NCBI GenBank assembly: GCA_032718475.1
Contig: JAUCBJ010005520.1
Span: 70,521 to 134,520, forward strand
Origin: Nemertoderma westbladi
Lineage: Eukaryota; Animalia; Xenacoelomorpha
Direction: 5' to 3'
Length of the DNA stretch: 64,000 nucleotides
Shown: piece after piece, positions 9,186-41,194 of the stretch
How the letters are laid out: every line of letters starts with the position of its first letter
How positions within the stretch are numbered: the first letter of the stretch is position 1
Translations under genes and position numbers: made by a program
Notes under the pieces: model-generated
The model's input: only the letters and a program-made list of their open reading frames with translations
Told to the model about the DNA's origin: nothing
Databases searched by the model: none

Positions 9186-9273
9186 CTTCGTCTTTAGTGA
9201 TTGGTGGCTGGTGGTTATTGAGTTTATCCAGGGCAGCAGCACGGATTTAGTTACTGCCGAAGGGTTTAGTTAC

Positions 9274-9801
9274 TGTGACGGGATCCAGGAGGGATCCCGA
9301 TTTATCCGATGTTTAGTTCACGCGTCCCCGCCGTGTGTAAAGAGTAAAATGAGTTCTGATGTTCGGTGTATATAATGATCAGTCTAATAAGATATAGATA
9401 TAGGTTGTTGTACACGGAAGGCGGGATACGGTAACTAAAGTCCCGGTCCTTCCCTAGCTAAACTATCTAACCTAACTAGCACCAATATGATACTGGGATA
9501 ACTGACTGGTATGATTACTGGTAACTGGTTATATTGCACGGTGGCCTTATTGCTGTACCTAATCGATGCCTTGCCCCCCTCTGATTGGTTGATACCCTTG
9601 TTGGCGCCCCGTGGAGTGTTCCCGTTCACTCCATCTGTTCTCTCTGGGTTAGGGGTTTGGCCCCTGACCCTTGTTGTGTGGTTCTCCTTCCCACTCTATT
9701 GGGGTGACACGAGGTTGATATTGGTAATCAACCTCGTGCTCCCAATATTGCCTTATGGCTCACTTTATGGGTTTGTGTTAGCGGAATTGGATAAGCTAAC
9801 A
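9274..9801 (-). repeat. 5' LTR of element 1
   Basis: Direct repeat of 2202-2729; flanked by TSD TTGGA. Confidence 0.95.
9500..9533 (-). promoter_or_regulatory. Predicted LTR core promoter: TATAA at -30 and initiator TCAGTT (+1 = 9503)
   Basis: Spacing is conserved in the two sister LTRs (TATAT at 15388/15390 with TTAGTT +1 at 15420; TATATT at 40821 with TCAGTT +1 at 40790); TCAGTT fits the TCAKTY initiator consensus. Confidence 0.65.
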
Positions 9802-11339
9802 TTGGACTTGTGACCACTGGGTCCACTATGAGTCCATAGCTTTCCAGTTCGCTTCTTGAACTGGGTTCCAGCCGAAAACAATCCATTTGCAGAGATAAGA
9901 TCCTGAAGATGGACGGAATTTCGTAACACTATTGTTATAGACCCAGGGTGATGTAGGTGGTTGATGCAGACTTGCATTAAAGTCTCCCAGGAATGTTAAG
10001 AATGCATGCTGATCCACTCCATCAGTAGCTGCTTGTAGATTGTGGTAGAAATTTTCCACCTCCTCTATAGGGGCAACACTAGTTGGAGAGTAGAACACAA
10101 TTAGAACCACCTTAGGAAACATCTTAGCCAGTCTTCCAGAACATGAGAAGTGGCAACTGATGCATGTGCAGTTGGATTCATAATAGACCAATTCCACCAT
10201 TGCCACTATCATCTGCTGATGCGAGGGTGAGTCGCCAACCGCCCCCCATGCCTTTAATCAGAACCTCATCAATCTGTCCAGTCTGCATTCGGTGCTCTTG
10301 AATTTCCACTGCGCTAAGAGAAAGCTTATCTGCCAAGGCAGTCAGCTCACCTTGTGGAATTGGGGACCTGTGTGTTAGGGTGTTAACTGAGGCTAGTCTA
10401 GTGACTTGCCTCAGATTCACCAATGGCTTAGTTGGTCGGGGTGGAACATGACAGTAGCCTCAAACTCCAGCATCCCTCTCCCCCTCACAATCTGGCTTAC
10501 CTGGTGACCCAGGGTTTCTGCCAGAAAGGTCATCAGGAAAGGGACTCACAGAATTGTTGGCCGCTCTCTCTCCAGAGGGGGTTAGACAGGCAGCCGGTCA
10601 GGAGATAACTGACGCCTGTGAGGCCAATTGTGTGCAGTAATTCCACTGGCCTCAAGTGGCCGGACCTCCGCATTACAAATGTAATCCATAGTGGGGGTTG
10701 GGGGGTGCTTTTTTACTGAGTCAGCTCTCGAGGCAAATACCACACCCTGGTTTGCCATTCCACATGGTGGGTATCGCAGTGGAGTCAGATATGAGGCCCA
10801 TCACCCACACCTACTCTGATGCACATGACTGACCATTGGCTGTGTAGCTCATCTGCTGGGCCATGCCCTGTACCGCTGCTGCCAGGTGCAGGTGCAGGTG
10901 CACTCAGAGTGGATATGAGAACACTCTACTTTGACCAGCCATTGGTAGATCACCCTCTGCCTGGCCAGGCCATATACCCCTGCAGCCAAGTATATGGGTA
11001 CTTAATCCAGGACCAAGGGCATCCTTATCCCAGAACGAAGGGGGTCCTAGTTACAGAACCAGATTTGCCCTAGTAAGAGGGTCTATGCAGCCACAGGTGG
11101 CACCTATTTTATGCTGCATGGAGGTGGCAAGTTTTCTTGATCAATGACCTAGAATACCTGATCTGACCTGTGTAAAGTTGACCCGTGGCTAACAGACAAC
11201 CGTCTATCCTTAAATCTAAAAAAACTCGAAAAATCTAAATCGAAAAAAAAATCTATTTTTTTCAAATAAAAAAGAAACAAAACACAATAACATAAAAATA
11301 CGTAATCAACTAATCAAAAATGTAAATGAAACAAAATTT

Positions 11340-12150
11340 TTAGGAATTTGGTAGACAGAAAGTTATCTTGGAAAATCATTGTGCCTATGTTTTAAAGAAA
11401 ATCCCAAAATCGGCTGGTATATTTTTTAAACTCCGACACTACCTTTTTTAAACTCTACCACTACGTATATTAAAATTACTTTACTGTTCACTGATACAAC
11501 CGTGCATTATTATATATCTGAATATCAGTTAATATCACAAAAGGTACAATATAGGGCATACCAGAATCATGGGGTTAGCTGCGCGAAACAAGCCTTTGTT
11601 ATAAGCAGCACCCTAGGCTATAGTTACCCTAGTCTGACGGTATATTTATACATATTTAGTATACTTTATGTGCTATATGTCAATTATTTAGTGCATATTA
11701 AAAATAACTCCAATAATTTCAACTTCACTAATTATGGTATAGTGATCTGGGGTAACGCTCAATCTATACACACGAAATCTATTAAAATTAAAATAAATAA
11801 ACTAGCCAGAAACCTTCAGTCACTACCATGAACACGCATCGCCACTATACAAACAATTAGATATACTACCGATTGAACAACTGCATTTTCTTGAAACAAC
11901 TAAACTAATGTGGGAAATCCACAATAACAAAAAACACAATTTTATCACTTCGTTGTTTCAACAAAAATCCACTGTACATATTTATACGCCAAGCACAACG
12001 ACAAGCAAAAACTACTATGTACCACGGACCCGAGAAATCATTAAAATATGATGGTGTCATTGTCTGGAACACACTAGATGTAGATATTAAACAAAGTAAA
12101 TCGAAAAAATCATTTTAACAAATTAAAAAACAAACTAATAAATGAGCTAC
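11340..12150 (+). mobile_element. Old CR1-group LINE 3' remnant
   Basis: YGIVIWGNA and other C-terminal RT-like fragments, heavily decayed. Confidence 0.5.
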
Positions 12151-12765
12151 AGTAAGATGAAATATTACGATTTTATTCACTTTCATATCATATCATAAAA
12201 TATATATCCAATATATTAAATTATTAAGTAATTAATTACTTAATTATTATTTTTTTTTATTTTCATTGTTTTTACTTTCTTATGGAATTAAGAATGATAT
12301 TAACAATTATTTTATCGTATCTGTACATTTAATTAACAGGCAATTTTACCGTACCTAATCTAATCTACAAAATGTACATTAATTAATTAAATAAACGAAT
12401 AAAATATAAGTGTTATAATTAATTAAGGTGTACGACCAACTCGGTATAAATAAAAAAAAAAGAAGAGGGGTTGCGTTGGGTTTATCATTATGGTTCTGGA
12501 GTAGGGTGTATCCGAAACCTTTAAGACGAGAAGAAATTGGCGAGTTGGTTTACTAAATCAAAAAAGATCGCAGTTCGCTAATATTGGTTGGAGTCGGCCA
12601 GTCGGGAAATCCGAATGAGCTGGATACCCACTTTTGGTCCGCCCGGATGCTCAAACTATGATAACATAGCCGGCAAACTCGATACTCGGTTGAGCAAACA
12701 CAAATGTATTTGGGTTTAATATATAATAATGTCGTTGACGATTCTCTTCAAGATAGAAAGTACAC

Positions 12766-14010
12766 TCAGCTGTAAGGAGTGAGGAATGTTGTGAGATTTT
12801 GGCTCTCTGGCTCCAGTTCTATTTGCCAGTAACTGTGAGTGGCATCGAACTTGGAGAAATAGTTCATTCCAGATGGTATCGAGATGACAACGTCATGTGG
12901 ACACGGGATTGGGTGGACTGCATGGCAAATAAATTTATTCAGTTTAGTATGGTCCACACAAATTCGAAGTCCACTGGACTTCTTTGAGGTCATGATGAGT
13001 AGTAGGCTGATGAACTCTGTTGGTTCAGCCACTCGTTTAATAATTCCTTTATTTTCCATTTGATCTAAGTTTGCCTTAACTTCATCCCAGTAGGAGAACG
13101 GTAGAGTGCGGTCAGCATGGACAGCATATGGGGTAGATACGCATAGGAGGTCCCTCCATAACAGAGAGGGTGACATCGGGAAAACTTCCATGGAAGATAT
13201 CGGAATACTCATCGAGGAGTTGCATATCGGAATACTCATCGAGGAGTTGCATATCGGAATACTCATCGAGGAGTTCCATAGAGTGGAGTTTGATAAACCC
13301 AAAGGCCAGGTTTGGTATCGATGGAGGTTATAGACAGAATTTGACGGCGATGCGATGTTTAGTTACATAGCAAGGGACCGGGAATTCCAGCAATATTAAA
13401 CCATGGAGTTTACGGAGCTCAAATAGAAAAAGGAATCCAGAGAAGTCCGGTCTCAAGTACGCCATTGTATTAACTGTTCTGTCATAATAGTTTCTATCCA
13501 GATTAATGGAATCCAAACGCTTTAGGGGTGTGGTATTAGCAGCAATATTATCTTTGGTGTTAACGAAACATACAAATTTGTTATGTCTAATGAGCTCTGA
13601 ACAGATAATAGTCATCGGCACCCGTGTTGGCTATTGTATGAGGCGAAAAATAGATACCATGGCAAATAACGGAAACGTTGAACATGAGTTGACGATAGGT
13701 AATGATATTAATAAAGGAGGGGGATTCATAGCGTTTGTGTGGGATTTTATCTCAGAAGTCTCTGTTGTTTCTGAAGTCTCTGACTTACTTTTCATACAAA
13801 TGGGGCGAATGTGCCCTTTGATACTGCATTTGTGACAAATGTTGTCACGGTAGGGGCACTTACTTCATAGGTGGGCAGTCAAGCATTTCCTACAACTTAT
13901 ATTACCGGAAGTTGAAGGGAAGCTTTCTTCTGTGCATTCGCTGGGCAACGAAAATGTCGACCAGTCAGAGAGACATGTCCTAAGGACGTCATCCAAAGAA
14001 GGATCATCGA
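12766..14010 (-). mobile_element. Gypsy/Ty3 remnant (zinc knuckle, RT N-terminal half)
   Basis: LRICVDHTKLN, YFSKFDATHSYWQIEL..TTFLTPY; CHKCSIKGHIRPIC knuckle near 13800-13840. Confidence 0.75.
13197..13277. repeat. 27-bp tandem repeat, three copies
   Basis: atatcggaatactcatcgaggagttgc repeated in tandem. Confidence 0.9.
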
Positions 14011-15128: not shown

Positions 15129-18100
15129 TGTTAGCTTATCCAATTCCACTAACACCCCACAAAGTAAGCCGTTAAGCAATATTGGGGGCCACGAAGTTGA
15201 TTACCCAACCTCGTGCCACCCCAACAAAGTGGGAAGGAGAAACACACAATAGGGGTCAGGGGCCATACCCCTGACAGAGAGAGAATAGCAGGAGTGAGGG
15301 GAAACACTCCAAAGGGCGCCAACAGGGATATTAGCCAATGGGGGGAAGGCACCGGCTAGGTACTGTAACAACGGCCAAACCGTGCAATATATATTACCTG
15401 TCATCATGTTATTGTAGTTAGTTATTTCATTCTGTTAGTCGGTTAGCTAGGGTAGAGCGGTGACTTTTAATACCGTCCCCGTCTACTGCCATTATTAGTA
15501 TTCAGTACATACCGTAAATTAATCAGTTATCTCATTCTATACACTATATCCATTTGACGTTTATATCATACATATATCGGAGAATTAATAACATCAGGAC
15601 TCTCAAAACAATCTTTTCACATACACACGGCGGGGACGCGTAATTACAACAACCGGATAAACCGGGATCCTCCTAGGATCCCGTCACAGTATTAGAACTA
15701 AAATCTACCAGCCACCGATCTAAAGCAAAGATAAGATGAGCGACATAACGCCAATGCGGACCCCGGACGAAGACCTAACGATCCGCGAGGCCGCGACCAG
15801 ACGGTATAGGCCCACGACGCCGGACCCATCGGTAATGGGCCATCCGGCAGTTCAGGATGAGGGGGGCCGTCTGGAACCAGAGGTCGAGTCGAGTGGAGGG
15901 GGAGTCGAGTCGAGAGAAAGAGAAAGCGAGATGGGAGAGGAAGAGGACGAGTCGACACGGAGCGGGGGTCGACGTACCGATGTCGCCGGCCAGCCACAGG
16001 CCGAGGGCGACGGACGGCCCACCGGAACGGCGACGGTGGGGCCGCCGGTACGACGTCGGACCCGGAGAGATGGAGGAGAGGTCGGCGACGAGGACGTCGG
16101 GGTTTCTGATCGACTTCGACGGGCCTACAACGCGACCCGGAAGCTACTTAAGGAGGCCAAGGAGGGGGCGAGGATAGACGAGGTAAAGTTGACAACAGGA
16201 CTAGGTGAGTCGGATAAACATTTTAGTTATCTAATGCGCTTCGGGCAGAGAGAACTGGCCAAGGAGAGAGCGAGAGGGGTTGCCGAGGAACTGTGTGATT
16301 TATGGCGGTGTAGGGGTATGCAACCTAGCGTAGTGTACATAGGGCCATACTTAGTCGATGCCCGGGGAATAAAATTAGTGGGTTGGAGGAGACCTGAGGA
16401 GGGCGAATCCGAGGTTAACCCCGAGGATTCGGTCTCGTCGGTCGGAGGAAGTTCTGGGAGGAGGGGGAAAGTTAGTAGATCGGGAAGGCGGAGGGAATCC
16501 GTCACAACCGATAAGTCTGCTACATCCTCCGTAAAAGAAAGACGGGTGAGAGAGATAAATGCGACATACCATCTCGATCTGATAGCGCAAGGTCAGAGAG
16601 AAGTAAAGAGACGGTTAGAGGAGGGGAGAATGCTACTAGAGAAGGAAATGAAACTGATTAGAGAAACCGGAGAGAGGGCCGAAAGGGCCGCGAAAAGCTT
16701 TAGGGAGTGTGAGGAAATAGGGAGGAAGGAACAAGAGGAGCGTGAGGCGAGAGAGCAGAGTGAACGCAAGGAGCGTGAGGCGAGAGAGGAAAATGAACGC
16801 AAAGAGCGTGAGGCGGAACGCAAGGAACGTGAGGCGAGGGAGAAAAGTGAACGCAAAGAGCGTGAGGCGAGGGAGGAAAGTGAACGCAAAGAGCGTGAGG
16901 CGAGACGAAGGGAGGGAGCTAGGAGAGAGGCGGAATTGGCCGACCAGAACGCACGGGAGGGTCGGGAGAGAATGGCAAGAGAGGAGCGTGAGCGAAAAGA
17001 ATTGGAAAGACGCCTAAGCGAGCTTATAGAGTACGAAACTAGACACACGCGCGAACTGGAACTGGCGCGGATAGGGGTGTCAGAGAGCGGGGCTGACTCG
17101 AATGTTTTCGAGGAGCCAAGGGCCGTGGATACATTTATTAATACCCCACTTACAGGGACCGCACGACAGACCCGAAACTGGTGTGACCGTACGGGCGGGG
17201 GGGGGGGGGGGGGGTAATAATAATACTACAGTAGACGACGTTAATATTAATAGTACCGTATTGGATAATCCTAACCAAGCCTTTATTGCAGGAAATACTT
17301 TACCTAGTAGTAGTAATTTAAATTTAAATACAAATAATCTAAATAATAATTTCAATTTAAACGTGCAAAATAACCCGAATAGTAATTTAAATTTAGAAAA
17401 TAATAATAACTCAAATAATTTAAATAATGATCCAAACCCGAATTTACAAAATAATTCAAATAGTGTAGTCGCGCAAAATAATTCAAATGATTTTATTTCG
17501 AACGAACAAAATAATTCCGTTTCTAATATGGGTGCTATTAACGTGAACGCGTCGGACGTGTATAACCCGACAGACGGCGGCCTGGTAGGCCACGTAGTTG
17601 GTAGGCAGGGGGTGCCGGGGTTGAGTCGACCCGACGGCGGCCTGGTAGGCCACGTAGTTAGTAGGCAGGGGGTGGCGGGGTTGAGTCAACCCGAGGGGGG
17701 CCTGGTAGGCCAGGTGGCAGTAGAGAGAGAAGCGGGGGTGAATAGACCTAGCCGCAGTGGAAACATTGTGTCGACTGGAGAGGGGTGTAGAAGTGAAGTA
17801 AGAGGTAGCGGCGTGATATGTGGCGAGTGGGGGGGGGGCTACAGGAGCCCCGCAACGAGAAGTTAGTGGCGAGCGGGGGGGGGGCTACAGGAGCCCCACA
17901 GCGAGAAGTTAGTGGCGAGAGGGGGGGGGGCAGAGAGTGTCCCACAGGCGTCGGCGGATAATGCGCGGGCCGAATCAGGTAAACCGCAACACCCGGCGAC
18001 GGAGAGTAGATAGGGGGATTGCGAGTATCCCCAGCGGCGTGCGATCGAGCAGAGAGAGGCAGGTTGACGTCGCGAGAGGGCGGACGAAGCGTCGAGCCCG

Positions 18101-21100
18101 ATCAGAAGAGGGAAGAAGAACAGTGGAGTTTAACCGGGAGGTCGACGAGAGATCTCACGAGCGGGAATACTGCACTGACAGGAGAAGAAGGGAAGAGAGT
18201 AGAAGAAGTGTCGCCGCGAACGACAGGAGAGCGAGAACGGATAGCGAGCCGTCGGTAGTAGAGATGGAGATGGAGAGTCAGCAGGGTCGAACCTCGGGAG
18301 ATTGCCGTCGCCCCGGAGGAACGCGACCTGACGAGGCGTATTGCGCGCAGAGAGAGGGGTACGGGATGTACCGGCACGAGAGCGAGAGTAGTAGAGGGGG
18401 TCGAAGAGAAACTTTCCGACGGGAAATACCTACCGATCGAGAATACGGTAGCCGCGGGGAGGATTATTCGAGAAGAATAAACTTCGATCCCGAGCGACAC
18501 ATACAGACTGTAGGACGTACTGTAGGCCTTACTGCACATACTATAGGCCATGCTGACAGGAATAATGTAGGCGATAGGATAGCGCGGACGACGGAATTAA
18601 ACCCGGAAGTCGCGGAGTACATACCGGCAGGTAGGCCAGAAGCTGATAGGCCTATACCGGTACCAGTACAGCAGTATGACTACAGCATGCAAGGACATAA
18701 CATATACCCAGGGGAGGGGGGAATTATTGCGGATAGGTGCATGGGCCCCAATATATTAACATCAACCCCAGTACCAAACATACCGGTGGGGGGGGGGGGG
18801 GGGGGGCAGGGTGACATTCCCCCATCACAATATCAACAATATACCCCAATAGGAGCAAGAACAACGAACCCCTTGGATGGAAATAGGTCATGCGACACAG
18901 AAATATGGAGGGGGCCGCTACCCCCAATGATATACCCAAGCCAGAGGAAGGCAGGAAATAGGACGGACGGACCGCACCTAACAGGAGAAACTATACAACA
19001 TCCATCGAACCCATTGGAAGCGCAGGCGATGGGAATGGCCACGTTAATAGATGCGTTAAAAACTAGGATCAAGCTACCACCCGTGGAACCATTCAAATTC
19101 GATGGGAGCAGGCCGGAAGAATACCTACAGTTTCGGCGCATGTATAGCAACGAAATACTAACAAAGAACTTGACGCAGGCGGAGTGCCTAAAGTATCTGC
19201 AAGTATATACAGGAGGCCCAGCATACGACATCGTGAGGCAATACCAGGGCATAGAGGGCGGCTTCACGATGGCATGGCGGGCACTGGACAGGGAATACGG
19301 GCACCCGGCCAAGATCATCCGGCAAACCCTGAGAGGCATAACATCGGGTGGCCTACAGGATAATCCCGTTAGCATTAAGACGTTCGCGAACAAGGTCGAA
19401 AAGGCGCTAATCGTACTGAAAACGCTAGACGCGCCATACGAGCTCAACGCATCCAACAACATAACCACGATAGCGCAGGCACTACCGATGTGGCTGCGCA
19501 ACAAGTGGAGGAAGATCGCTTTCTCCACTCGAGATAGGAAGGGTGCGGAACCGGGTTTAGAAGAAATGTCGAGCTTCTTAAACTAAGAAGCTGAATTAAT
19601 AACCGACCCAGTCTATAGTGAGGACAGCCTGGGAAAGGGACCAAGAACAGATTACCATAGACCGAAGCCGGAACACAACACGTCAAACGCATTGCCGAAG
19701 CTCAGGCAATCACTGCCATACGCAGCGACGCAGGGGACTGCTAGTCCACAGGTAGCCGGGGGTGAGACCACATCATGGAGTGGACAGGGGAAAAATAACA
19801 ACACAAACAAACATGACCCTAGTACGCCCAGTAGGCCGAACCCAAACAATAAGAATAGTAGGGACTTTGGTACAAATGCAACCGCGATACGCAATGCATT
19901 GTATAAGGACGGCTACGACCCAAAGAGCAAATGCCAGCTACATACAAATGCGCTCCATCAGACCATGAACTGCAGGTACTGGCAAGCATTACCCAGGGAA
20001 GATCAAGTAGAATACGCGGCGAGAAATGAGATCTGCTCGCGATGTGTGATGAGTGGACATAGAGCTAGACAATGCGAGGAAACACCGATTAAGTTCGGTC
20101 AAAGTAAAGGCCAAGCGATGGCAACGAGCACAGTAGGGGCGAAGAAGAGAGGAACGGTACTACTTGGGGTAGTACCAGTGCGAGTAATCGGGGAAGGCAA
20201 CCGATCAGTGACCACACTTATGCTGGTCGACAGTGGAGCTGCCTTCACATTAGTCGAGAATTGGGTGGCCGAGGAGATAGGATTGAGAACGAGGCCAAGT
20301 AGAATGGCGGTAACAACAATTTCTAGCAAAGATGAGGTCCTGGAGATGAGGACCGGACGGTGCACGATTGCAGCGGTGGCACCGGGATGCGACTACGGGG
20401 CGACCATCGACCCCATCCAAGTGATAGAGTCAATAAATATCAATGCCAGGCGGCCAACCAACATCGAGGTCGAACAATATAAATTCCTGGATGATATCAA
20501 CTTCTCAATCCCAGAGGTGGACGTTAGGAAGGTATCCATTATAGTAGGAATGGACTGTCTGACGGCCCACGAAAGAATGCGAACGGTCTTCGGCGAAGAC
20601 AAGCAGTGTGACCCGGTGGCAATATTGACACCATTCGGGTGGACGCTGAGTGGCCCAATCAAGAGTAAGATACCATTTAGGATGTTGGAGACATCAGGAT
20701 GCATGTTCGCGGGAACTATGCGAGAAATGGAGGATGAGGGAGCAGAGGAGCAGCTCAGGAGACTGCTCAGGCAGGATTTTGAAGGATTAAAGGAGACCGG
20801 GGTCGGAACCTCGGTAGAAGATATACCATAGGGATGGTATGGAAGCTACCGAAGCTACCGCTACCCGATAATAGAGGGATGGTACTCACGAGGCTTCGTA
20901 AGTTAAAGCAGACACTAAAATGGAGCCCCGAGAAGAATGAGTACGTCCACAGAACGATTAAGAAGTACGTCGAGAAAGGATGGGCCGTGGAGTTACCGGT
21001 CGACGAACCAAGCACGGACAGGACATATTACCTACCACTCCACGTGGCTTTAGATCCAAAGAAAGGTAAACTGCGGATGGTAGTTGACGCATCGGCCAAA

Positions 21101-22464
21101 ACCAACGGAAAATGCCTAAACGACAATCTGCTGGAGGGTCCCAATATCTACAACTCGGGGATCGAGGTCCTACTTAGATTCAGGAATGGAAAACACGCCT
21201 TCACCTGTGATATAGAAGGCATGTTCAACCAAGTCCGTGTAACGGAAGAAGATAGCGATAGCCAACGCTTCTTATGGTACAACGGCGATGAAGAACCGTC
21301 GATTATACCGACGTACAAGATGATAGTACAGAACATGGGAGCCAAGTCGTCTTCATTTACGACGACTATGGCAGTAAGAGACACAGTGAAGGGCAAGGAG
21401 GATAGATACAGCACTAGGGCCGTCGATATGATTCGACGCGGCTTCTACGTAGACGACGGAATGGAGTCTGGAAATACGGTTAAGGAGATATTGGACACAG
21501 GGCGCAGGGTGAGATAGGGCGAGATATGAGTAATAGAGCGTGGAGTGCGGAGTGTGGAGAGGGCGTGGGCGCAATTCAAATGTGGGGGGGGGGGGGGGAG
21601 AAGTAAGAGGCGGAGTGAGGGACGAGGAGGTCCGAGAGTATGCGAGAGTTAGGGTGAGAGCGGAGGAGAGTCAGGGAGAAAGTGTTGGGGAAACAAAATC
21701 GTATGAGAGGAGCGCACGATCGGCCCGACATGGGACGCCAGGCGAACAGGGTAGCATTATCATGCCCATAGGGAGCGGCCTGGAAAGCCGGCTCCGAGAG
21801 AAAACAGGCCCACCCCACACCCGATACTAGATCGGGATCCAACGGAATTGTAGCGCACTTGAGGAGGATGCTATCTTCTCACCGGGAAGATAGCATGGGG
21901 GGAGTGTTAGCTTATCCAATTCCGCTAACACCCCACAAAGTAAGCCATTAAGCAATATTGGGGGCCACGAAGTTGATTACCCAACCTCGTGCCACCCCAA
22001 CAAAGTGGGAAGGAGAAACACACAATAGGGGTCAGGGGCCATACCCCTGACAGAGAGAGAATAGCAGGAGTGAGGGGAAACACTCCAAAGGGCGCCAACA
22101 GGGATATTAGCCAATGGGGGGAAGGCACCGGCTAGGTACTGTAACAACGGCCAAACCGTGCAATATATATTACCTGTCATCATGTTATTGTAGTTAGTTA
22201 TTTCATTCTGTTAGTCGGTTAGCTAGGGTAGAGCGGTGACTTTTAATACCGTCCCCGTCTACTGCCATTATTAGCATTCAGTACATACCGTAAATTAATC
22301 AGTTATCTCATTCTATACACTATATCCATTTGACGTTTATATCATACATATATCGGAGAATTAATAACATCAGGACTCTCAAAACGATCTTTTCACATAC
22401 ACACGGCGGGGACGCGTAATTACAACAACCAGATAAACCGGGATCCTCCTAGGATCCCGTCACA
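15129..22464 (+). mobile_element. BEL/Pao LTR retrotransposon, element 2 (internally deleted after the RT YVDD motif)
   Basis: 560-bp LTRs at 15129-15688 and 21905-22464 (five substitutions seen); TSD ACGTG at 15124-15128 and 22465-22469; PPT at 21895-21904. Confidence 0.95.
15736..21517 (+). pseudogene. Gag-protease-partial RT polyprotein of element 2, interrupted
   Basis: Gag extension 15736-17866; Gag 17937-19586 ends in TAA where element 1 has Tyr; protease LVDSGA; BEL RT YYLPLH..KLRMVVDAS..CDIEGMFNQV..QRFLW..FYVDD. No RNase H or intact integrase follows. Confidence 0.9.
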
Positions 22465-23080: not shown

Positions 23081-23175
23081 GGGCAATTGTTTTCGGGGGA
23101 CAACTGTCCGGCAGGCAATAGTCCGGGGGCAATTGTCCGGTGGCAATTGTCCGGGGGGTGGGGGGCAATTGTCCT
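23081..23175. repeat. Short GGGCAATTGTCC-type repeat cluster, probably MITE-derived; similar cluster at 51115-51242
   Basis: About six degenerate copies visible. Confidence 0.6.
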
Positions 23176-23810: not shown

Positions 23811-23886
23811 GTAGGTTGCACCAATATCACATCATTATTATAATATATTATTATTAATATCATATCATGTGATAGACAGAATATTT

Positions 23887-27583: not shown

Positions 27584-27621
<38 letters not shown>

Positions 27622-29364
27622 TATATTTATATCGCGCCTTTAAGAATAAAAATATACATGCAAGGCGCCAGCAATAACGATATGAAAGTCATTAAGGTAT
27701 ACACGAATACATAAATGAAGAAGAGTATACATAGAGAAGGTATACATAAATGATAGTCAAAAAACGTAAAAAAGTACATTTATAGTTATTCATATTCTTC
27801 CTTGAAAAGGAAAGTTTTCAGGCGAGATTTGAATGAGTCAACTCCAGGTGCGCTACGGACATTCATCGGCAGAGAGTTCCAAACCTGTGGTGCAGCAACG
27901 GAAAAAGCGCATTTTCCATAATTTGAGAGACAAAATCTTGGTACGACGAGCAACATCTTATCACTGGAGCGTAACTCGCGATGCCAGAACATATGGTGTC
28001 AATAGGTCCCTGAGATATTGAGGTGCCAGGCCGTTCAAACATTTGTAAGTCAACAACGCTATTTTGAAATCAATACGGCGACGAACAGGAAGCCAATGTA
28101 GGCTTTTAAGGACAGGTGTAATATCTTCCCGCTTTCGGACACCCAGTAGAAGACGCGCGGCTGAGTTTTGTACATATTGTAGCTTCTTAATGAGATTATT
28201 CGGCAGACCATAATATAGCGAATTGTTGCAGTCTAGCTTGCTTGTTACCAAGGCATGTATAAGAGTCTCTAGAGTGTCCTTCTGTAAACATTTTCTGATT
28301 TTGGACAGGTTCCGAAGGTGGAAGAAGGAATCTCGCACAGTGATGGCAATCTGTTTACTAAAAGACAAATGAGCGTCTATGTAGAAGCCAATGTCACGGG
28401 CGTCACTGCTACATTTTACTCTATTGTTGCCTATTTGTAGACAAGGCGGGTCTATCTGACATCCAAACCGTGATTGCAACAATAAACATTCTGTCTTGTC
28501 CATATTCATCTTGAGTAGATTTGTATTCATCCAGCTCTGTATGTCACGTAAACATTCCTCGGTAACGGTTCAAATGCAATATATATTTGAGTGTCGTCGG
28601 CATATAAGTGATATGTTAAACCATGCTTTAATATGACAGACGACAGGGAGCGAGTATATATTGTGAAAAGTAAGGGTCCTAAAACGGAACCTTGAGGTAA
28701 GCCATACTTCAGGTCTTTGAATTTCGAGTACGCATCACCAATAAGTACCTGTTGTTTACGTCCTGAAAGGTATGAACGAAACCATTGCAGTGCATTATCT
28801 TTTACCCCAATATCATGTTCTAGAATATTCAGTAAGATACTGTGTTCCACCGTATCAAAGGCCGCGCTTAGATCCAATAGTATAAGTAGCACAGCTGACC
28901 CGCTATCGATACTTCGTAGTACATTATCAGTAACCGACAGTAATGCAGTTTCAGTACTATGTAATGGTCGATATGCACTTTGCATTGGCTCATTAAGAGA
29001 GTTCATATCCATATGTTTCATTAGCTGTATAGCTACGGCCTTCTCAGTTAACTTGGCTATGTATATGAGATGTGAGACTGGTCTAAAGTTCTTAAAAACT
29101 TCCGGATCCAGACGCAGCTTCTTCAGTACCGGCGATAATACCGCTTCTTTGAAAAGTTGTGGAACTGTAGAAGTTGAAAGTGACAAATTAATAATTATTG
29201 TGATAATGGGTAGAAGTAACTTGATGGATAATTTAACTAAACGCGTTGGCATCGGGTCACACGGACTAGATTTCGATTTTGAGTTGTTTATTAGATCTTC
29301 AGTATCAGCTGTGGACAGGTCATCAAATATTCGGAAGGAATTGTTTGGAGATTCAGTTAGAGCT

Positions 29365-29555
29365 GCTGCCGGAGTAACCATTACCGGATTCGGATCCGCT
29401 GGAGTAGCAGTTACCGGATTCGGACCCGCTGGAAGTAACGGTTACCGGATTTGGATCCGTTGGAGTAACCGTTACCGGTTTCGGACCCATTGGAGTAACG
29501 GTTACCGGTTTCGGAACCGTTGGAGTAATGGTTACCAGATTCGGTACCGCTGGTG
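29365..29555 (-). repeat. 30-bp coding minisatellite, second array (about six copies) in the EN-RT linker of the L2
   Basis: Same unit (VTPAGPNPVT-like) as 30790-31467; one 1-nt insertion. Confidence 0.85.
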
Positions 29556-30789
29556 TCTGTTGTAAATCATCCCGTATGTCTGTTATTTTCTTATCGAAAA
29601 AGTCAGCAAATCTGTTTGCCAGCTCCTCTTCACTGTCTGCGTCAGGTAACTTTGTTTTAGTCTTCCGGTACAGTATTGTATCAATTACTGAGAATAATTT
29701 CTTTTGATTTTCTTTTATTATGTCCCGATAAAATGTTTCTTTTGCTGTAACAATAATATCAGAAACGCGTTTACACTGATCTCTATAAGCAGTTTGGTCA
29801 ACAATAAGTTTAGATTTTCGATACTTCCTCTCTAATTATTGCCGTTTTCTTTTCTCCTCTGCAATGTTATCGTTGTACCACTCTGACTCGGGACGTCTTC
29901 GCACGGTTTTCCGCATTGCCGGAGCATGTTTATTCATTATCATGGATAATGTGTCATTGTATTGAAGCAACATCATTGAGATTATCAGAGGGAGTTTGAT
30001 ATAACGGTGATGATTCTAGATCGTATGTAAGGTGATCCCAGTTAATTTTTTTAATGTTTCTATATGTAAATGATTCAAGGGGCATTTCTGGTTTAAGCAG
30101 ATCAATATCGAAATGTACAGCAAAATGGTCGGATAATCCAATATCTTCAATGTGGATGTTTTTGATAGTTTTCTCATCATCTGAATGAACCAGAATAAGG
30201 CAAGAGTGAGCCCATGTCTGTGAGTTGGCTCCGTTACTAACTGCACCAACCCAAAACATTTGATTAGGTTGCCGAAATCATTAGCATCTTTGTCGTTCTT
30301 GTCATCCACATGAAAGTTAAAATCCCCCAATAAAGTAATCTTCCCAGCCATGATGATTATATGCTGCATGAAATCTGCAAATTGGTCAAAGAATTGCTGT
30401 ACAGTTAATCCATTTGTAGCCGAGGGGCACGTCCGATATACTATAATAATCCTCATCAATACCCCAATATAAATCATTGTAAATTCAATATATTCAAAGG
30501 TCGAGTAAACTACACAATTGGCGCTTTTCTTTAGTTTTAGAGTCTCATTGTGTATAGCCACACCTCCTCCCCTACATCCGGTGCGGGCTTGACTCTGCAC
30601 TGTGCCACCAGTGGGGCATATTTCATTAACTATTATGTCATCATCCACATCACCCCTTAACCACGTTTCGGTAATAGCAGTTATGTCAAATTTCTCATCC
30701 ACTATGTAGTCCTTTATTACCGGAGCTTTGTTAACAATGGATCTAGCATTGTATAAGCAACAATGTATCAGCTGAGATCGGGAACCAAC

Positions 30790-31467
30790 CGGTATCGGAG
30801 CCGCTGGAGTAACGGTTGCCGGATTCGGATACGCTGGAGTAACAGTTACCGGATTCGGACCCGCTGGAGTAAGAGTTACCGGATTAGGACCCGGTGGAGT
30901 AACGGTTACCGGTTTCTGACCCGATGGAATAACGTTTCCCGTATTCGTATTCGGACCCGCTGGAGTAACTGTTACCGGATTCGGACCCACTGGAGTAACG
31001 TTTCTCGTATTCGGACCCGCTGGAGTAAGGTTTCGCGTATTCGGACCCGCTGGAGTAACGTATCCCGTATTCGGACCCGCTCGGGTAACTTTTCTCGTAT
31101 TCGGACCCGCTGGAGTAACAGTTACCAGTTTCGGACCCGCTGGAGTAACAGTTACGGGATTCGGACCTGCTGGAGTAACAGTTACTGGATTCGGACCCGC
31201 TGGAGTTACAGTTACCGGATTTGGACCCGCTGGAGTAACATATCCCAGATTCGGACCCGCTGGAGTAATGTATCCTGTATTCGGACCCGCTGGAGTAACA
31301 TTTCCCATATTCTGACCCGCTGGAGTAACGTATCCCATATTCGGACCCGCTGGAGTAACGTTTCCTGTATTCGGACCTGCTGGAGTAACGTATCCCATAT
31401 TTGGACTCGCTGGAGTTACGTTTCCCGTATTCGGACCCGCTGGAGTAACGGTTTCTGGATTCGGCAC
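30790..31467 (-). repeat. 30-bp coding minisatellite, about 22 copies, in frame upstream of the L2 endonuclease
   Basis: ORF 30016-31467 reads (VTPAGPNxxx)n directly into HCCLYNARSIVNK. Confidence 0.92.
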
Positions 31468-31524
31468 CCAATGAACAGATCGACATGCAGTACTTGGATG
31501 TAGGGGTAAGCGTACGGATGGTTG

Positions 31525-32703: not shown

Positions 32704-35700
32704 TATAATTCAATCACCAATAATCAGATAATATAATATTACAGAACCAGTTAAACAAGTTGGCGAGTGTAATCAGGTCAGATAGATAGATAAAGTTCCG
32801 TAGATAAAGTTGACTTTATAAAATGGATATCGCTCGGTGCTGATATTGTATGTTTGCAGGAACATTTTAAATTAAAGCAGAATGTAGGTTATATACGCAA
32901 AGAATTTCGTAATTTTCGGTACTTTAGTGTTCCAGCCCATTATAAGAATGATTCACAGTCTGGGCGTCCATCGGGAGGATTGAGTATGTTAATTAATCCG
33001 GATCTGGCCGGTTTTGCTTCGAAATGTAAATCAAGTAATCCCAGATTACAAGGTATGAAGTTTAATTTGCCTGATAAAATTTTTGTAATCATTAATGTTT
33101 ATTTTCCTGTTGATGGGCGTACCAGTTCAGTGTCTGATGACCTACTGTGTTTAATTAATGACATATGTGAATTGATTTCCAAAGTCAACACGCCAAACAT
33201 ACTTATAGTAGGTGATTTAAATTCAGATTTTTTAAGGAATACAGCTCATGTCAATTTGGTGTCTTCTTTCATTAGTGACAATAACCTAGAAATTCTATGG
33301 AATAAATTTCCAGTTGACCACACGTATTTGCAGAGTGCAGACAACAATTTGCACACTAGTACAATTGATCATTTTATTTTGTCCCCTAATTGGTTAAATA
33401 ATTGTGTCGAGGGCGGTGCAGTCCATAGCGGAGCAAACCTTTCCCAGCATAGTCCTATATACGCTAAGTTTAATGTAGAAGACTTTGAGGCAGCCCCTGA
33501 GGTGTCACGAGACCCATCAGGTTTGCCTAGTTACAGCCGTGCTAATGAGGAACAAAGGACAAATTTTAAAAACTCGTTAAATGATAATTTGTGTAATTTA
33601 AATTTACCTTGTGCAGATTGTGACGATTTATTTTCCACTGATAATACACATATTGGCAATATTGATACATTTGCATTTGATTTGCTAGAAGCTATAAATA
33701 ATGCGGTGCAATTTTTGCCTAATTCTGGAATGCATAAAGGCCACTCTGACTCTGACCACCCAACGCTACCAGGTTGGAACGAGCACGTTCGACCATATCG
33801 TGTTGAATCCATTTTCTGGCATAATGTTTGGGAGTCAGCTGGAAGGTCTAATGCATCTCAGAGTAATCTCTACCATGTTAAGAGACGTGCTAGCTTACAA
33901 TATAAATATGCGGTACGACGACTGAAAGGTAAAACCGATCAAATTCGCTGCAACAAATTTTTCCAATTGGTGATTAATAATAACGGTGATATTTTCAATG
34001 AAATAAAGAAGTTAAGGGGTAATTTTTCCGGGTTAAGTCATGTTTTAGATGGGGAAACAATGGGCGAAGGTATTTCGAATAAATTTGCGGATATATATTC
34101 GACTTTATTTAATCAGGGATATTCATCAGATTTTAGTAGTTTAAAAACGCTAATTACGGAAGGCATTGAAAACCTTACGGCTGTTGATTGTCAGTGGGTT
34201 ACTCCAGGTCTCGTAGCTGCCGCTATCTCTAGGTTAAAAGCGGGAAAATCGGATGTTTCTGGCAAGTTTATTTCCGATTGTCTGATTAATGCTCCATATC
34301 AGTTTACTAAATCGCTGTGTGAATTATTTAATGCGTGTCTCGTTCATGGCTCTGTTCCTAAATTTATTTTAATTACGGCATTGGTACCCCTTATTAAGGA
34401 TAGTCTTGGTGACATTTCAAGTTCATCCAATTATCGTGCAATAGCTATATCATCATTAATCCTGAAGATATTTGAGTGGGTCATGGTCCTCTCTCAGCAT
34501 GATTCGTTGCAAGTCGATGAACTGCAATTTGGTTTCCAAAAGAACTCTAGTACTTTGATGTGCACTTGGGCCGCTGGCGAGGTTGTTTCTTTTTACTCGA
34601 GGTTTTCAACTCCGGTGTATGGCTGCTTTATGGACTTATCTAAAGCCTTCGATATGGTTGAGTGGGTTTCGCTTTTCCTTCAACTTCTGAAAAAAGGTTT
34701 CTCACCATTATTTACTAGGGCCCTGTTGTCTATGTACAGTGGTCAATCATGTAAGGTGAAATGGGGTTCATACTTGTCAAATGATTTTGGCATTTCGAAT
34801 GGAGTTCGGCAGGGGTCGGTGGCCAGCCCGATTCTGTTTTGCGTTGTTCTGGATTTGCGTTGTTCTGGATTTGCTAGTCCATAAACTGCGAGAGTCTCAA
34901 GTGGGGTGCTCGATTGGATCCAGATATTTGGGTATTTATATATATGCCGATGACATTTTACTTTTATGCCCTTCTGTGGTTGGTTTACAGTTAATGGTTG
35001 ATTTGTGTGCAGATTTTGCTAAGTTTAGTACTGATAATAATCCCAGTAAAAGTAAAACTAAGTGCATTCCATTTGGTTACAATGGAAACCCCCAATAGCT
35101 AATATTTATCTATGTAATAAAGTTTTACCTTGGGTACAGCAGATTCAACATTTGGGCAACACTTTTCATTATACTGGTATTTTTTCGTGATATTTAAAAA
35201 AAAGGGCGTAATTTATTGGTAAGTAAATAAGTAATAGTAAGTAAGGTAAGTAATAGTCTAAGACAGGAATTTTACTATCTCCATCCCGGTACACTTTCTG
35301 AAATACAACGGATTTATGCCACATCTTTTTACGGTAGTTGTCTTTGGAACTTATGGTCTACAGAATGTACACGTTTATTTACCTCTTGGAATATTAATAC
35401 TAGATTAGTATGGGGCCTACCCATTAATACCCATAGGTTTATCGTAGAAGGTATTGTAACATTTCCTTATCCAATGTCCATGGTTGCCAGTCGATATGTC
35501 AAATTTGCCTCTAGTTTAATGTCAAATTATATGAAACCCTCATTGCAATTTCTGGCTATGCTGTGTTTATTTGATTGTAGATCTAATTCTGGCTCTAACT
35601 TGAAACGTATAAAGCCTAAGTGTGCGCCTAATAATGTTACAAGTGATTCGTGCAATTTGATTAATTGGTTTCCAGACCCACGCGCTGTTTCATATTGTGA

Positions 35701-36009
35701 TTTGTGCAAAGAAATTACTGATTGCAGGTACAACTATTTGGAAGTCCCTGGTTTCTCTAAGGTTGAATTAGACACAATTTTAAATTTTATATGTACCGAT
35801 TAAGTATCAACCAGTGTATACTATTTCACGAATCATTAGGATATTATGTTTTTACTATCTCATTTATATTTATAGACTATAACAACTTAATATTTTGTGC
35901 TAATGCTCTAACATTTACCGGTTTTATGTATACTGTGGCTATACGCTGAGTTATATAACTATATGCACGAAATTAAATTAAATAAAATAAATAAAACAAA
36001 AGAAGACTG

Positions 36010-38041
36010 TCACATCCGAGGATGTTTTAATAGTTAAAATAAACATTGGAGCTTGCGTTTTTAAGGAAAAAAATCATCATGTTGAAGTAGCTATGGCGAA
36101 AATCTATCAAGGTTTTTAGTACCAAATGATATTGACTAGGGAAACTTACTAAAAGTTGCTACAAGTTGGTATAGGGCCTTCTACGGTGATGTATTTAAAG
36201 ACTCAGTACCAGATTCATGAATGGTTTTACTGTATGGTGATCTGAAACCTGCTATGCAATTACCAATGTATGGCGAAGACTTTATTCTGTATCGTGACGA
36301 AATATGTAACGATTTTAGACGACTTACGTTCCTTATTTGCGACAAAATGTATTATGAGCGGAGCTTAGCCAAGAATAGCGATGATGAAAACGAACAGCAG
36401 ACTTATCAACTTCGGTTTCCAACATCCATAGCAGTTGATGATATATCATCAGAGTCTTTGTCAGACACCACTCATAATCGAGTAGATGACGAGGACATTA
36501 GTATTGGTACCGGTGTATCCTATTCCAATAGGCCTACTCCAGTTGATCCAGAAGAAACTTATATTTTGGTTTAATCTGACGATGGAGAAGAGATCCGAGA
36601 ATCCAATGCCCATGCACCCGATAGAGCCCAAAGTGAATTTTGTATTGTATTTACCCCTACTTCATTTGAACTAAGTCAGGGTGATTTAAGCTTTTTAGAA
36701 TATGTAAGCGTTCAGTATAACTATATTAGTGATGATGAATCATTTATTTACATTCGAGTCCGAAGAAAACATATATTAGATGATGTTCTGAAAAAAACAG
36801 CTTTAATGGATCCACATTCACATGTAAAAGTGAAGTTTATAGGAGAGCCTGGCGAAGACCAGGGCAGTGGCTTGCGCAGAGACCTTTTTGGTTATGTTTC
36901 AAGTAGCTTCTCCAGCAGTGCTCATTTCAGAGTCTTTGATGATTTCTTAGTCCCATCATGTAGGAACATGAATAATGTTTTAAGAGGATCTTTATGCGAT
37001 ATTGGTAAGCTTTTGAGTATGATATATTCCAAGGGGAGCAAACGTTTGGTAGAATGCACCCATTAGTTAGTGCTTATATGGTCTATATGTAAAAGTGAAG
37101 TTTATAGGAGAGCCTGGCGAAGACCAGGGCAGTGGCTTGCGCAGAGACCTTTTTGGTTATGTTTCAAGTAGCTTCTCCAGCAGTGCTCATTTCAGTGTCT
37201 TTGATGATTTCTTAGTCCCATCATGTAGGAACATGAATAATGTTTTAAGAGGATCTTTATGCGATATTGGTAAGCTTTTGAGTATGATTATATTCCAAGG
37301 GGAGCAAACGTTTGGTAGAATGCACCCATTAGTTAGTGCTTATATGGTCTATGGTTTATCAGTGGATTATTTAAGCTTACTAAAATCCCACCCTCTGTTG
37401 GCTAAGAGTAGTTAGTGCCTTTTTAATGAGTTTAATCAAACAGGATTCATATCAGCTGAAATTCTAGAAGACAGTTTGATGCTTGGCTTAGCACCAGTCT
37501 CTGTAGATGCTCTGCTTAGTAGCAAAGAAAAGTTTGTATTGGATTATTACAAGACGAAGTTAATATTTGCCAATAAAGCGGCTATTGATATGATAAAAGT
37601 TGAGTTTTCAAAACATGTGGCAAGTATTAGTCAGGATCTTCAGTTCAAATTTTTATGTTGTTTGCCCCTCTTAACCTATCCAACTATATCGATTCAGCTA
37701 TTATTAGTAATCATCAGATCCTGGTTTGAATAGCTTCCAGAAGGAAGAGAACATTTTATATTGGTTTGGTGAGTTAATGGAGGACATGATGGCAACGTCG
37801 TGCCTTACAGATATGGTGAGAATACGTTGGATATTTCCATGTTAAAGTCGTGGTGTGGTTATTTGGATCGAGTAATCCGATATGCCCCGCTAAGCTTACA
37901 TTGGAATTTAAGCATTGTGACCCAGGTTGCAATTGCCACTTAAGTTACTCGACCTGTGCAATACAATTAATATTGCCCATTCATTTTGACAGTAAATTAA
38001 TTATGTGCAGTGCAATTATAAATTCTGTCTTAGAAAGTTAG
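36010..38041 (+). pseudogene. Intronless decayed HECT-domain E3 ligase (G2E3-like) with a ~265-bp tandem duplication
   Basis: IRVRRKHILDD, VKFIGEPGEDQGSGLRRDLF, WLFGSS..STCAIQLILP (catalytic Cys context); duplication 36822-37086 / 37087-37352; stops and frameshifts. Confidence 0.7.
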
Positions 38042-38195
38042 AGACATTTGGTTTGTTTTTTTTGGGGTAATCACCCCTCAAAAAAATATAATAATTTTTT
38101 TTTATTGAAAGAGTGAGTTACTGTCGCTTGTGGTCACACACCCCCCCCCCCTCTTACCATTTAATCGAAATAATTCAATAATTCAATATAATTTG

Positions 38196-41194
38196 TGAGA
38201 TCTCTCTTCAACCTCCCGGAAACTCCACTGCTCTTCTTCCGTCTTCCGACTGGGCTCGACGTCTTGTCGCTCGCCCGCTCACAGCGCCAACCTGTCTCTC
38301 TCTACCCGGTTGGATGCTCCGGGGGATACTCGCAATCCCCCTACTGTTCTCCATCGCCGGGTGCCACGGTTCACCTAACTCGCCCCGCGCATTATCCGCC
38401 GACGCTTGTGGGACATTCTCTGCCCCCCCCCCCCACTCGCCACTAATCTTTCGTGGTGGGGTGCCCGTAGCCCCCCCCCCCATTAGCCACCTCTTACTTC
38501 GCTACCTCCTACTTCGCTTCTACACCCCTCTCTAGTCGATGCATTGTTTCTACTTCGGCTGGGTGTACTCACCCCTGCCTCTCTCTGTGCGACTGTGTGG
38601 CCTTGCATGCTCCTGTCGGGTTGACTCACCCCCGCTACTCCCTGCCTAACTACGTGGCCTTGCAGGCTCCCATCAGGTTGACTCACCCCCGCTACTCCCT
38701 GCCTAACTACATGGCCTTGCAGGCTCCCGTCGGGTTGACTCACCACCGCTACTCCCTGCCTAACTACATGGCCTTGCAGGCTCTCGCTGGTCGGACCACC
38801 TGTGTCCCCTACATTCGTATTAATAGCACCATTATCAATAATATTATTATCTAAGTTATTCAAACTATTTAAATTATTTTGTTCGGGATTAGGGTTATTA
38901 TTTGGATTACTTTGCACGCTTAAATTAGAATTATTTGGATTATTCTATATATTTAAAATGGAATTAATGATATTTGAAAATCAAATGATCATTTTGTGCG
39001 TTTAAATTTAAATTATTATTTTGATTATTTTGTACATTCAAATTAAAATTATTATTACTGGGTAAAATATTATTTCCTGCAATAAAGGTTTGATTAGGGT
39101 TGTCTACTACGGTACTATTAATATTAATTCTTCTAACGTATTATTATTACCCCCCCCCCCACCTGTACGGTTACACCAGTCTTGGGTCTGTCGTCCGGTG
39201 CCTATAAGTGGGGTATTAACAAATGTTTCCATTACTTCTGGCTCCTCGTAAACGCTACCCAAACCAGCCTCACTCTCTGATAGTCCCAACTTCGCCAGCT
39301 CTAACCGGCGCTTTTGCTTCACCTGGTACATACATACTACATACACTTTCCCGCCCTCTCTCTCTCCCTGTCCTCTCTCAAACTTTGGTCGGCCAACTCT
39401 GCCTCTCTCGCAATCCTCTCTACCCTCCTCGCCTCACGCTCCTTACGCTCTTTCGCCTCTCGCTCTTTATCCTCCCTCATTTCTCTCTCCTCACCCTCTC
39501 TATAAAGTTTCTCGAGAGAGAGTTAGCGAGAGAGTGTAAAGAGAGGGCCGAGAGGCCCTCTCTTTACACTCTCTCGCTAACTCTCTCTCTTTCTCTAATA
39601 ATGCAGTTCCCTCATCCAGTTGCCTCTCCAACTCCCTCTGATCCAGCGCCACCAGGTCTAGTGGACACGCCAGATCTATCTCTAACACCCTTCTTGCTTT
39701 TGCGGAGAATGTAGCGGACTTATTGGTCACGACGGACTCCCGTCGCCTCTCTGTCCTACTAACTTTCCCCCGCTTTCTGGGGTTCTCGCTAACCGACGAC
39801 ACCGAATCCTCGGGGTTAACCTCGGGTTTGCCATTGTGCGGGTCCGCCCAACCCACTAACTTAATTCCCCTAGCATCCACTAAGTAGGGCCCTACGTACA
39901 CTACCCCAGTACGGGCTCCATTACCCCGGATCGCCACAATTCAAACAGTTCTGTGGCGACCCCCCTCGCTCTCTCACTCGCCAGTTCTCCCTGTCCAAAA
40001 TGGACTAAATAGTGAAAGTGTTTATTCGACTCATCTAGCCTCTGATATAGTTTAGGCTGGTCTACCTTTCTCCCTTCCTTGGCCTCCTTAAGCAGTTTCT
40101 TGATGGCGTTGTAGGCCCGTCGTAGCTGATCACTCGTCCCGACATCCTCTTCGCCGACTCCGCCTCCTCTCCTCGTCCGGGGTCGTACCGGCGGCCCCAC
40201 CGTCGCCGTTCCGGTGGGCCGTCCATCGCCCTCGGCCTGTGGCTGGCCGGCGACTTCGGTACTCCGACTGCCATCGTGCGTCGACTCGTCTCTCCCTCGT
40301 GGTTGATGGCCGCCCTCCGCTTGGGCTACCGGATCGTCCCTCATCGGCGAATCCGGTGTGGCTGGCCGATACCGTCGCGTCGCGGCCTCACGGATCATTT
40401 GGTTGGTGTCATCCGGGGTCCACGGCAGCGTCCTCTCACCCTCTGATAATCGGGGCTCCCTATTGCTCATCTCGATCTCTCTTCCTTGCAGTCACAGTTT
40501 GTTGGCAGTCAAACTCGGCAGTTAATGACTGTGACAGGATCAGAGATCCCGACCGGGTTAGAAATGTACTCGTTACCATTCTGCTTGGCAATCGTGCTAC
40601 TCGCTTTGGCTGAAGGCTGTTAGGGAAAACAATAAGAGTTTGTGTTGTTTGTCAGTATTGATTAACATAGGCGATAATAGCAAGTCGGTAATTGAATATG
40701 AATATAGCAGAAAATACAGGTTAATTGTTACCGGTATGGTGGTGGCGGTCATTAACTATGACCGGTCTGCACTGACTGAATAACTCAACTGACTGGTAAA
40801 TCAGCAATGTAAGATAATATATGATTAACACACATTGAATATTGGTTTCACCTCCTACTGCACTTTGGCCCTCTGTACCCAATGGATGCTTTCCTGTTCC
40901 CAATCATGTGCTTCCCTCCCCACTATTGGCTAATATACAAATTGTCACTTTGGCACTCCCTGTGAGTGTTTCCCCCCGCTGCTAGCCTCTACTAGCTGTG
41001 TTCCCTCCGAGGTGGTTTGACCTCTCACCTTTCTCTGTGGCTTTGGGGCTTGTGTCACCCACCCAATGTTGGTTATGAGACGAGATTGATATTGGTAATC
41101 GTCGAAATAATTGTCTCGAATCCCCAACATATTGCTAAAATGCCACTGGTCCCATTTTCTGGTGGGTAATGAAGTGGAATTGAATCCGCTTACA
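38196..41194 (-). mobile_element. BEL/Pao element 3: 5' LTR (40530-41194) plus Gag N-terminal extension, 3'-truncated
   Basis: TG..CA LTR with termini similar to elements 1 and 2; ORF fragments 39901-40470, 39500-39937, 38483-38917 and 38208-38483 are homologous to element 1/2 ORF1. Confidence 0.9.

Follow-up and report, generated by a model that had tools for sequence, protein, structure and literature searches.

How is reverse transcription started in a retrotransposon whose leader carries no tRNA-type site? The question is raised by three mutually related long terminal repeat (LTR) elements found in a 64-kb stretch of DNA from Nemertoderma westbladi (64,000 nucleotides, hereafter the window; contig JAUCBJ010005520.1, positions 70,521 to 134,520). 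The elements, E1 (minus strand), E2 (plus strand) and E3 (minus strand), are related, non-autonomous BEL/Pao LTR retrotransposons. An earlier note on this DNA had proposed that they are self-primed. At the level of sequence this reading is supported by pairing of each leader with its own LTR, by matched changes on the two sides of that pairing and by the same geometry in distant relatives. We put at about 0.72 the probability that self-priming of the Tf1 type operates in a branch of BEL/Pao, represented here by intron-less members, with a segment of the element's own LTR replacing the tRNA as primer.

Pairing of each leader with its own LTR

All three leaders start at the first base past the LTR-terminal CA, and no TGG follows any of the LTRs. 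As the earlier note had claimed, the leader abutting the 5' LTR is in each case the reverse complement of a segment of that same LTR, and the strings and coordinates given there for the three pairs proved exact on rechecking. In E1 (-), the primer-binding site at 9265-9273 shows 9/9 pairing with a putative self-primer segment at 9431-9439, whose 3' end lies 157 nt from the LTR end. The E2 (+) site at 15689-15697 forms eight Watson-Crick pairs and one G-U pair with a putative segment at 15465-15473 (215 nt between its 3' end and the LTR end), and the E3 (-) site at 40520-40529 shows 10/10 pairing with a putative segment at 40748-40757 (218 nt). In each LTR the primer segment ends in AC and is followed by CG, the AC|CG boundary that had already been noticed. 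A second copy of the E1 site stands at 9246-9254; the low depth of aligned contigs over 9238-9261 suggests that it marks a minor subfamily. In E3, a second 9-nt match between leader and LTR is seen at 40499-40490, 30 nt downstream; inspection by eye places it over the LTR end, and it may reflect a further competing fold.

The letters differ from element to element and the pairing is kept. Between E1 and E2, both sides have changed at leader positions 4, 5 and 6, with one further one-sided change that gives the G-U pair; between E1 and E3, both sides have changed at positions 3, 5 and 9. These changes were read with the LTR end and AC|CG as anchors. Since the two LTRs of E1 are identical and those of E2 show 5 differences, and both elements are flanked by target-site duplications (TSDs), the site must have been copied recently. 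There are no tRNA genes in the window.

The strength of the matches was evaluated with the leader offset fixed at 0 and the LTR dinucleotide-shuffled. Under these rules the match was reached by 11/5000 shuffles for E1 (without wobble), 6/5000 for E3 and 23/2000 for E2 (one wobble allowed); without wobble, E2 pairs over 6 nt only, a length reached by 1630/5000 shuffles. The elements being related, the three probabilities cannot be multiplied. At offset 0, the leaders pair with their own LTRs over 9, 9 and 11 nt (E1, E2 and E3), versus at most 5 nt in all six foreign leader-LTR combinations; the two genomic 3' flanks gave 4 and 5 nt.

Predicted folding and a possible route of priming

Several features that the earlier note did not contain are predicted around the primer segment: a hairpin in U5, a stem following AC|CG, a competing U5 look-alike of the primer-binding site, and promoter-like motifs upstream. 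The stem, hereafter stem A, has its first base directly behind AC and its partner strand in U5, with pair probabilities of 0.79-1.0 in E1 and 0.98-1.0 in E2. In E1 (9323-9430, -), 9430-9420 is predicted to pair with 9332-9323, closing an AT-rich variable loop; in E2 (+), folding pairs 15474-15483 with 15629-15638. Directly past the 3' arm of stem A comes the look-alike, which carries one extra purine (after GT in E1) and is located at 9312-9321 (-) in E1 and 15640-15649 (+) in E2, with a weak counterpart at 40569-40560 (-) in E3. A U5 hairpin of 7-9 bp, 5 nt before the LTR end, is predicted in all three elements (E1, an inverted repeat at 9279-9299, -, 8 bp; E2, 15663-15683, +; E3, 40551-40535, -). 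The primer segment is calculated to bind the look-alike with -4.4, +0.1 and -1.1 kcal/mol (E1, E2, E3) and the true site with -7.3, -5.1 and -10.6 kcal/mol; the E1 fold nevertheless prefers the look-alike despite this weaker binding. Moreover, in 3/3 elements the LTR window that pairs best with the downstream leader immediately precedes the primer segment. In E1 (-) this gives a predicted outer helix (9200-9486) between LTR 9486-9452 and leader 9233-9200; as good a helix was reached by 8/1000 shuffles in E1, 66/1000 in E2 and 130/1000 in E3.

The depth of DNA contigs peaks at the stem arms, the primer segment and the hairpin, and falls in the loop. Among the variants listed, none touches these arms, and a common one is at 9288, in the loop of the E1 hairpin. 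As divergent copies drop out of the alignment and the contigs do not reach far enough to connect primer variants with leader variants, this pattern shows conservation, not covariation. A search of Rfam gave 0 matches.

Where the RNA starts bears on how the primer could be made. What we take to be TATA-like and initiator-like motifs are found 33-64 nt upstream of the primer segment (in E1, minus strand, 9535-9530 and 9505-9501, respectively; the TATA-like motif of E3 was identified by eye). Their position indicates that the primer segment probably lies within the RNA rather than being formed by its first bases.

Every step beyond the complementarity itself is predicted or inferred. The RNA would start 33-64 nt upstream of the primer segment and fold into stem A and the U5 hairpin. 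The U5 look-alike would hold the primer segment until its transfer to the primer-binding site, which would occur inside a particle provided by a helper element. By analogy with Tf1, a cut at AC|CG, probably made by the RNase H of the helper, would then create an extendable 3' end. A longer 5' fragment would thus carry the primer at its 3' tip, and extension of the primer by reverse transcriptase (RT) would copy the LTR terminus, yielding minus strong-stop DNA of 157, 215 and 218 nt in E1, E2 and E3. Plus-strand synthesis would finally recopy the site from the primer, so that site and primer would stay matched. For Tf1, a copied primer-binding site is reported at roughly half of the cDNA ends (PMC11042837).

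Self-priming might also proceed without any cut by RNase H, if the 3' end annealing to the site were supplied by a transcript terminating at AC|CG, either a short one from the 5' LTR or the partner genomic RNA. The same pairing and covariation would follow, the primer does seem internal and not 5'-terminal, and the RNA 3' end is unplaced, the LTRs containing no AATAAA. However, a polyadenylated end is, as a matter of general knowledge, not extendable. In addition, the bases that directly follow AC|CG are paired with U5 in stem A, which argues for an RNA that is continuous there, as in the Tf1 fold (PMC10085805). We therefore consider a transcript ending at AC|CG an unlikely source of the primer, and cleavage of a longer RNA the better candidate.

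Distant BEL/Pao relatives and predicted splice junctions

Relatives were collected as 78 metagenome and 15 genome-contig BEL loci (L001-L093), with RT identities of 27-41%. An objective LTR end was available for 14 candidates, of which L035 was dropped because its end is at a contig edge; 13 loci remained, L017 and L018 belonging to one family. No TGG follows the LTR in 11/13, while L081 and L085 (2/13) have a TGG-type site and no self-match. In 9/13 loci the leader pairs over 11-15 nt with a predicted exon junction having a canonical donor and acceptor; the match begins 2-4 nt past the LTR and was reached by 0/100 shuffles in eight loci and 1/100 in one. With a looser filter, junction pairing of 11 and 10 nt was found in L002 and L011. 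Pairing of at least 11 nt characterizes 9/10 own combinations and 1/210 foreign ones (L017 left out).

In a wider pass, a usable RT hit was obtained for 92/93 loci and 14 were without flank, so that 78 were tested. A junction match of at least 10 nt was detected in 27/78, and 25 of these gave 0/40 shuffles. The filter of this pass was set after the first relatives had been seen and shuffling destroys splice motifs, which makes the comparison with foreign pairs the fairer control. Contiguous matches of 11-12 nt were observed in L013, L035 and L060 (0/40 shuffles), and weaker ones in L040, L042 and L055; several other contiguous matches of 9-11 nt were treated as chance, as many shuffles reach them. 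Canonical-looking introns of about 70-325 nt thus occur inside BEL/Pao LTRs among L001-L078, and most of the relatives' primers end in AC, as in E1, E2 and E3. For the window elements themselves, a splice-built primer was rejected, no donor/acceptor pair outdoing the contiguous match. Two side observations concern the sample: the LTR of L065 ends in TA, not CA, with an intact TSD and a junction match 4 nt downstream; and L079-L093 are BEL/Pao elements in records titled as bacterial genomes, probably through contamination by an animal host, five of them with TGG-type sites.

E1, E2 and E3 do not look like a local invention. They appear to belong, as members without an intron, to a broad BEL/Pao branch where a predicted splice junction mostly serves as the primer. 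A tree of RT sequences with 91 rows (L090 and L092 dropped as short, L093 without usable hit) contains a branch with support 97/90 that separates the 4 TGG loci from E2 and from all 33 spliced-labelled and 6 contiguous-labelled rows; this tree is midpoint-rooted, some of its labels are weak, and it samples only unnamed loci found by E2-like patterns. The contiguous-primer loci L013, L035 and L060 are scattered on it among spliced relatives, which suggests repeated loss of the intron. A wider proposal can be built on these data, to which we give even odds: a large branch of animal BEL/Pao elements would do without tRNA priming, most of its primers would be assembled by the spliceosome from two LTR exons, and the window elements would be intron-losing descendants whose internal, contiguous primer stays bound by a U5 anti-primer switch before being passed to the site and cut.

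A number of observations weigh against self-priming as proposed here. The evidence in the window comes from just three related copies. MAFFT left the three LTR primer segments unaligned, failing over the variable loop, so that their homology was judged by the AC|CG anchor. The duplexes between primer segment and true site are weak. When folding is begun at the guessed start, the primer duplex lies 2.3 (E1) and 2.7 (E2) kcal/mol above the ensemble, and 0.1-8.5 kcal/mol above it in E3, depending on the folding window; it reaches probabilities of 0.57, 0.29 and 0.78 (E1, E2, E3) only when the primer segment is taken as the RNA start. E3 has a weak stem A, and the outer helix passes the shuffling test in E1 only and is not element-specific. 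The absence of AATAAA belongs in the same account, as does the absence of an autonomous or close helper, the best RT identity being 43% among 1.84 billion representatives. The branch leading to the E2 RT is very long (2.33), which makes its position in the tree unsure. Finally, a loose search (seven offsets, one wobble, splicing allowed) gave 43/210 foreign pairs of at least 9 nt. Such matches are therefore common under loose rules and length alone is a weak argument; position and specificity carry the signal.

Short matches, frequent under loose rules and found in related elements, together with the local duplication in the E1 leader, would fit coincidence, or a single duplication or inversion passed on to three sister elements. 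This explanation is very improbable given the fixed offset of 0, the common AC|CG anchor, the different letters in each element and the recurrence of the same geometry in loci of only 27-41% RT likeness.

In half-tRNA-primed elements, such as Osser and Bianca, the leader is complementary to an internal segment of a tRNA. The pairing could be a structural switch acting in packaging, dimerisation or translation control, with priming left to a tRNA fragment or another host RNA. In the predicted folds the U5 look-alike is a competitor for the primer segment, favoured in E1, and some Copia lineages use half-tRNA primers with no TGG (PMC6317226). However, three leaders in the window and many in the relatives each track their own LTR, a relationship that a fixed set of tRNAs does not explain. 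The pairing also begins 0-4 nt past the LTR end, where priming must start, and it is missing in the TGG-type relatives. A switch of this kind is thus doubtful. The pairing is a real feature and would work like Tf1-type self-priming, in elements outside the Tf1/sushi group.

The elements, their surroundings and known priming systems

LTR ends are objective in E1 and E2, which have paired LTRs and 5-bp TSDs, and were derived from homology in E3. E1 (-) has a 5' LTR at 9274-9801 (528 bp, TG...CA) that is 100% identical to its 3' LTR at 2202-2729 (528 bp), adjoined by a polypurine tract at about 2730-2739; its 5-bp TSD is found at 2197-2201 and 9802-9806. E1 lies within another repeat (52509-53809 versus 1468-2207 and 9804-10285), and the paralog at 53005-53060 keeps the unsplit target, which confirms E1 as a true insertion. 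The LTRs of E2 (+), at 15129-15688 and 21905-22464 (560 bp each), are likewise accompanied by a 5-bp TSD and an adjoining polypurine tract. E3 (-) is decayed: its sole LTR, the 5' one, spans 40530-41194 (665 bp), and the element is cut off near 38195, without a 3' LTR. LTR likeness among the three is 71-82%. A short inverted repeat stands directly before the polypurine tract in E1 (about 2735-2760) and E2 (about 21870-21895).

The coding region of E1 (3963-9269, -) is spread over three frames encoding a low-complexity N-terminal part, Gag (DUF1759) and a protease; RT, RNase H and integrase were not found in it. That of E2 (15724-21517, +) encodes Gag (DUF1759), a protease and an RT stub, with frameshifts and a stop codon (19584-19586) breaking it up. 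The stub (20783-21517, +) is N-terminal, contains YVDD and stops short of RNase H, giving a Pol order of protease then RT. RNase H and integrase are absent from all three elements. The elements are non-autonomous for this reason, and the cutting enzyme and RT must therefore be supplied in trans. Membership in BEL/Pao, as assumed in the earlier note, is borne out by DUF1759 (E-values 8e-11 and 6e-11 in E1 and E2), by the aspartyl protease (5e-6 and 1e-5) and by 94 homologs of the E2 RT stub, which are BEL/Pao polyproteins, most with PF05380 or PF03564 (best identity about 40%). E1 itself has no RT, and E3 is placed in the family by its DNA similarity to E1 and E2. Long low-complexity, repeat-rich regions precede the Gag core in E1 (7022-9269) and E2 (15724-17866), and 47/69-nt tandem repeats occupy the 3' region of E1 (3317-3863). 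Contigs from four DNA runs of three samples show the family to be high-copy and diverse. No match was obtained in a search for Gag-protease homologs, no relatives were found in viral contigs, and the family's own LTR pattern gave 0 matches in metagenome contigs.

Elsewhere in the window, a decayed Gypsy-type element occupies 42370-45564 (-). It had been put forward as a control with a normal TGG primer-binding site; a candidate TGG is indeed present at 45410-45408, but 5 nt past a CA and in a decayed element, so that the control is only plausible. Long interspersed element (LINE)-like endonuclease/RT remnants are found at 27961-31524 (-), 32794-34884 (+) and 915-1370 (-), one of which contains a tandem array of 30-nt units; further tandem repeats, at 49315-50137, 46875-47076 and 36822-37352, comprise arrays of 68-nt and 26-nt units and a duplication of 265 nt; and an open reading frame at 56177-56872 (+) has a laminin G-like match under the Pfam cut-off.

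To our knowledge, self-priming has been shown only in Tf1 of fission yeast, with predictions for related Gypsy and some plant Copia elements. A nematode BEL element was reportedly said, in an older account that our literature search did not confirm, to encode its own primer. In agreement with the earlier note, which knew of no description of self-priming in BEL/Pao, no report of it or of splice-built primers in these elements was found in the literature searched, most subscription journals and Repbase lying outside it. The BEL/Pao surveys PMC3118150, PMC554778 and PMC6238403 contain no match for PBS (primer-binding site) or tRNA. The background offered earlier, with self-priming in Tf1 and Tf1/sushi Gypsy elements and tRNA priming in BEL/Pao, omitted a prediction outside Gypsy, in the TAR lineage (Copia: Houba, Osr-1) of plants; for this lineage and for the Tcn1 clade (gypsy) of plants, LTR-leader complementarity is the sole basis of the prediction (PMC6317226). 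The rule used there, at least 10 bp of pairing starting 0-5 bp past the LTR, is satisfied by E3 only, E1 and E2 having 9.

With Tf1/Tf2 of Schizosaccharomyces pombe, Tj1, Tosmo/Tcry and Tf1/sushi elements, the window elements share a site complementary to their own LTR in place of a tRNA site, its position abutting the terminal CA, and, by prediction, flanking duplexes involving U5 (PMC7175516, PMC10085805, PMC4600332). Stem A and the U5 hairpin, as predicted, resemble the multi-duplex Tf1 fold (PMC10085805). The Tf1 pretzel fold has two further flanking duplexes: here a U5 hairpin is predicted on the 5' side in 3/3 elements, whereas on the 3' side the LTR partner of the leader lies upstream of the primer instead of downstream, and this pairing passes shuffling in 1/3. 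The Tf1 primer is made of the 5'-terminal RNA bases, whereas in the window elements promoter-like motifs and the predicted outer helix point to a start 33-64 nt upstream. Membership in Tf1/sushi, a group of Ty3/gypsy chromoviruses, was ruled out by RT and Gag of BEL/Pao type. Unlike that group, the elements also have a U5 look-alike that would compete for the primer, and relatives that apparently splice theirs.

Features in common with Belpaoviridae (BEL/Pao, Semotivirus) are the DUF1759 Gag, the aspartic protease, the BEL-type RT, the LTR length and the polypurine tract; TG...CA LTRs, polypurine tract and TSD are all present in E1 and E2, E3 having a single LTR. The profile issued by the ICTV, the international committee for virus taxonomy, describes an 18-nt site for tRNA-Arg or tRNA-Gly and a poorly understood replication (PMC8742986). 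The elements of the window differ from it by having no tRNA-type site (no TGG follows the LTR), no RNase H and no integrase. Fungal GalEa Copia elements, with their 'conserved hairpin site', and bivalve TRIMs (terminal-repeat retrotransposons in miniature) likewise have no canonical primer-binding site, but their inverted repeats are inside the internal region, whereas the partner in E1, E2 and E3 is in the LTR (PMC6934838).

If the proposed mechanism is correct, self-priming reaches a third LTR superfamily, and animals outside the Tf1/sushi group. This matters for the question, raised in PMC3601003, of whether tRNA priming came first or arose late. The elements would be freed from control by tRNA supply and by tRNA fragments, and, with splice-junction primers in their relatives, splicing may constitute a host checkpoint on copying.

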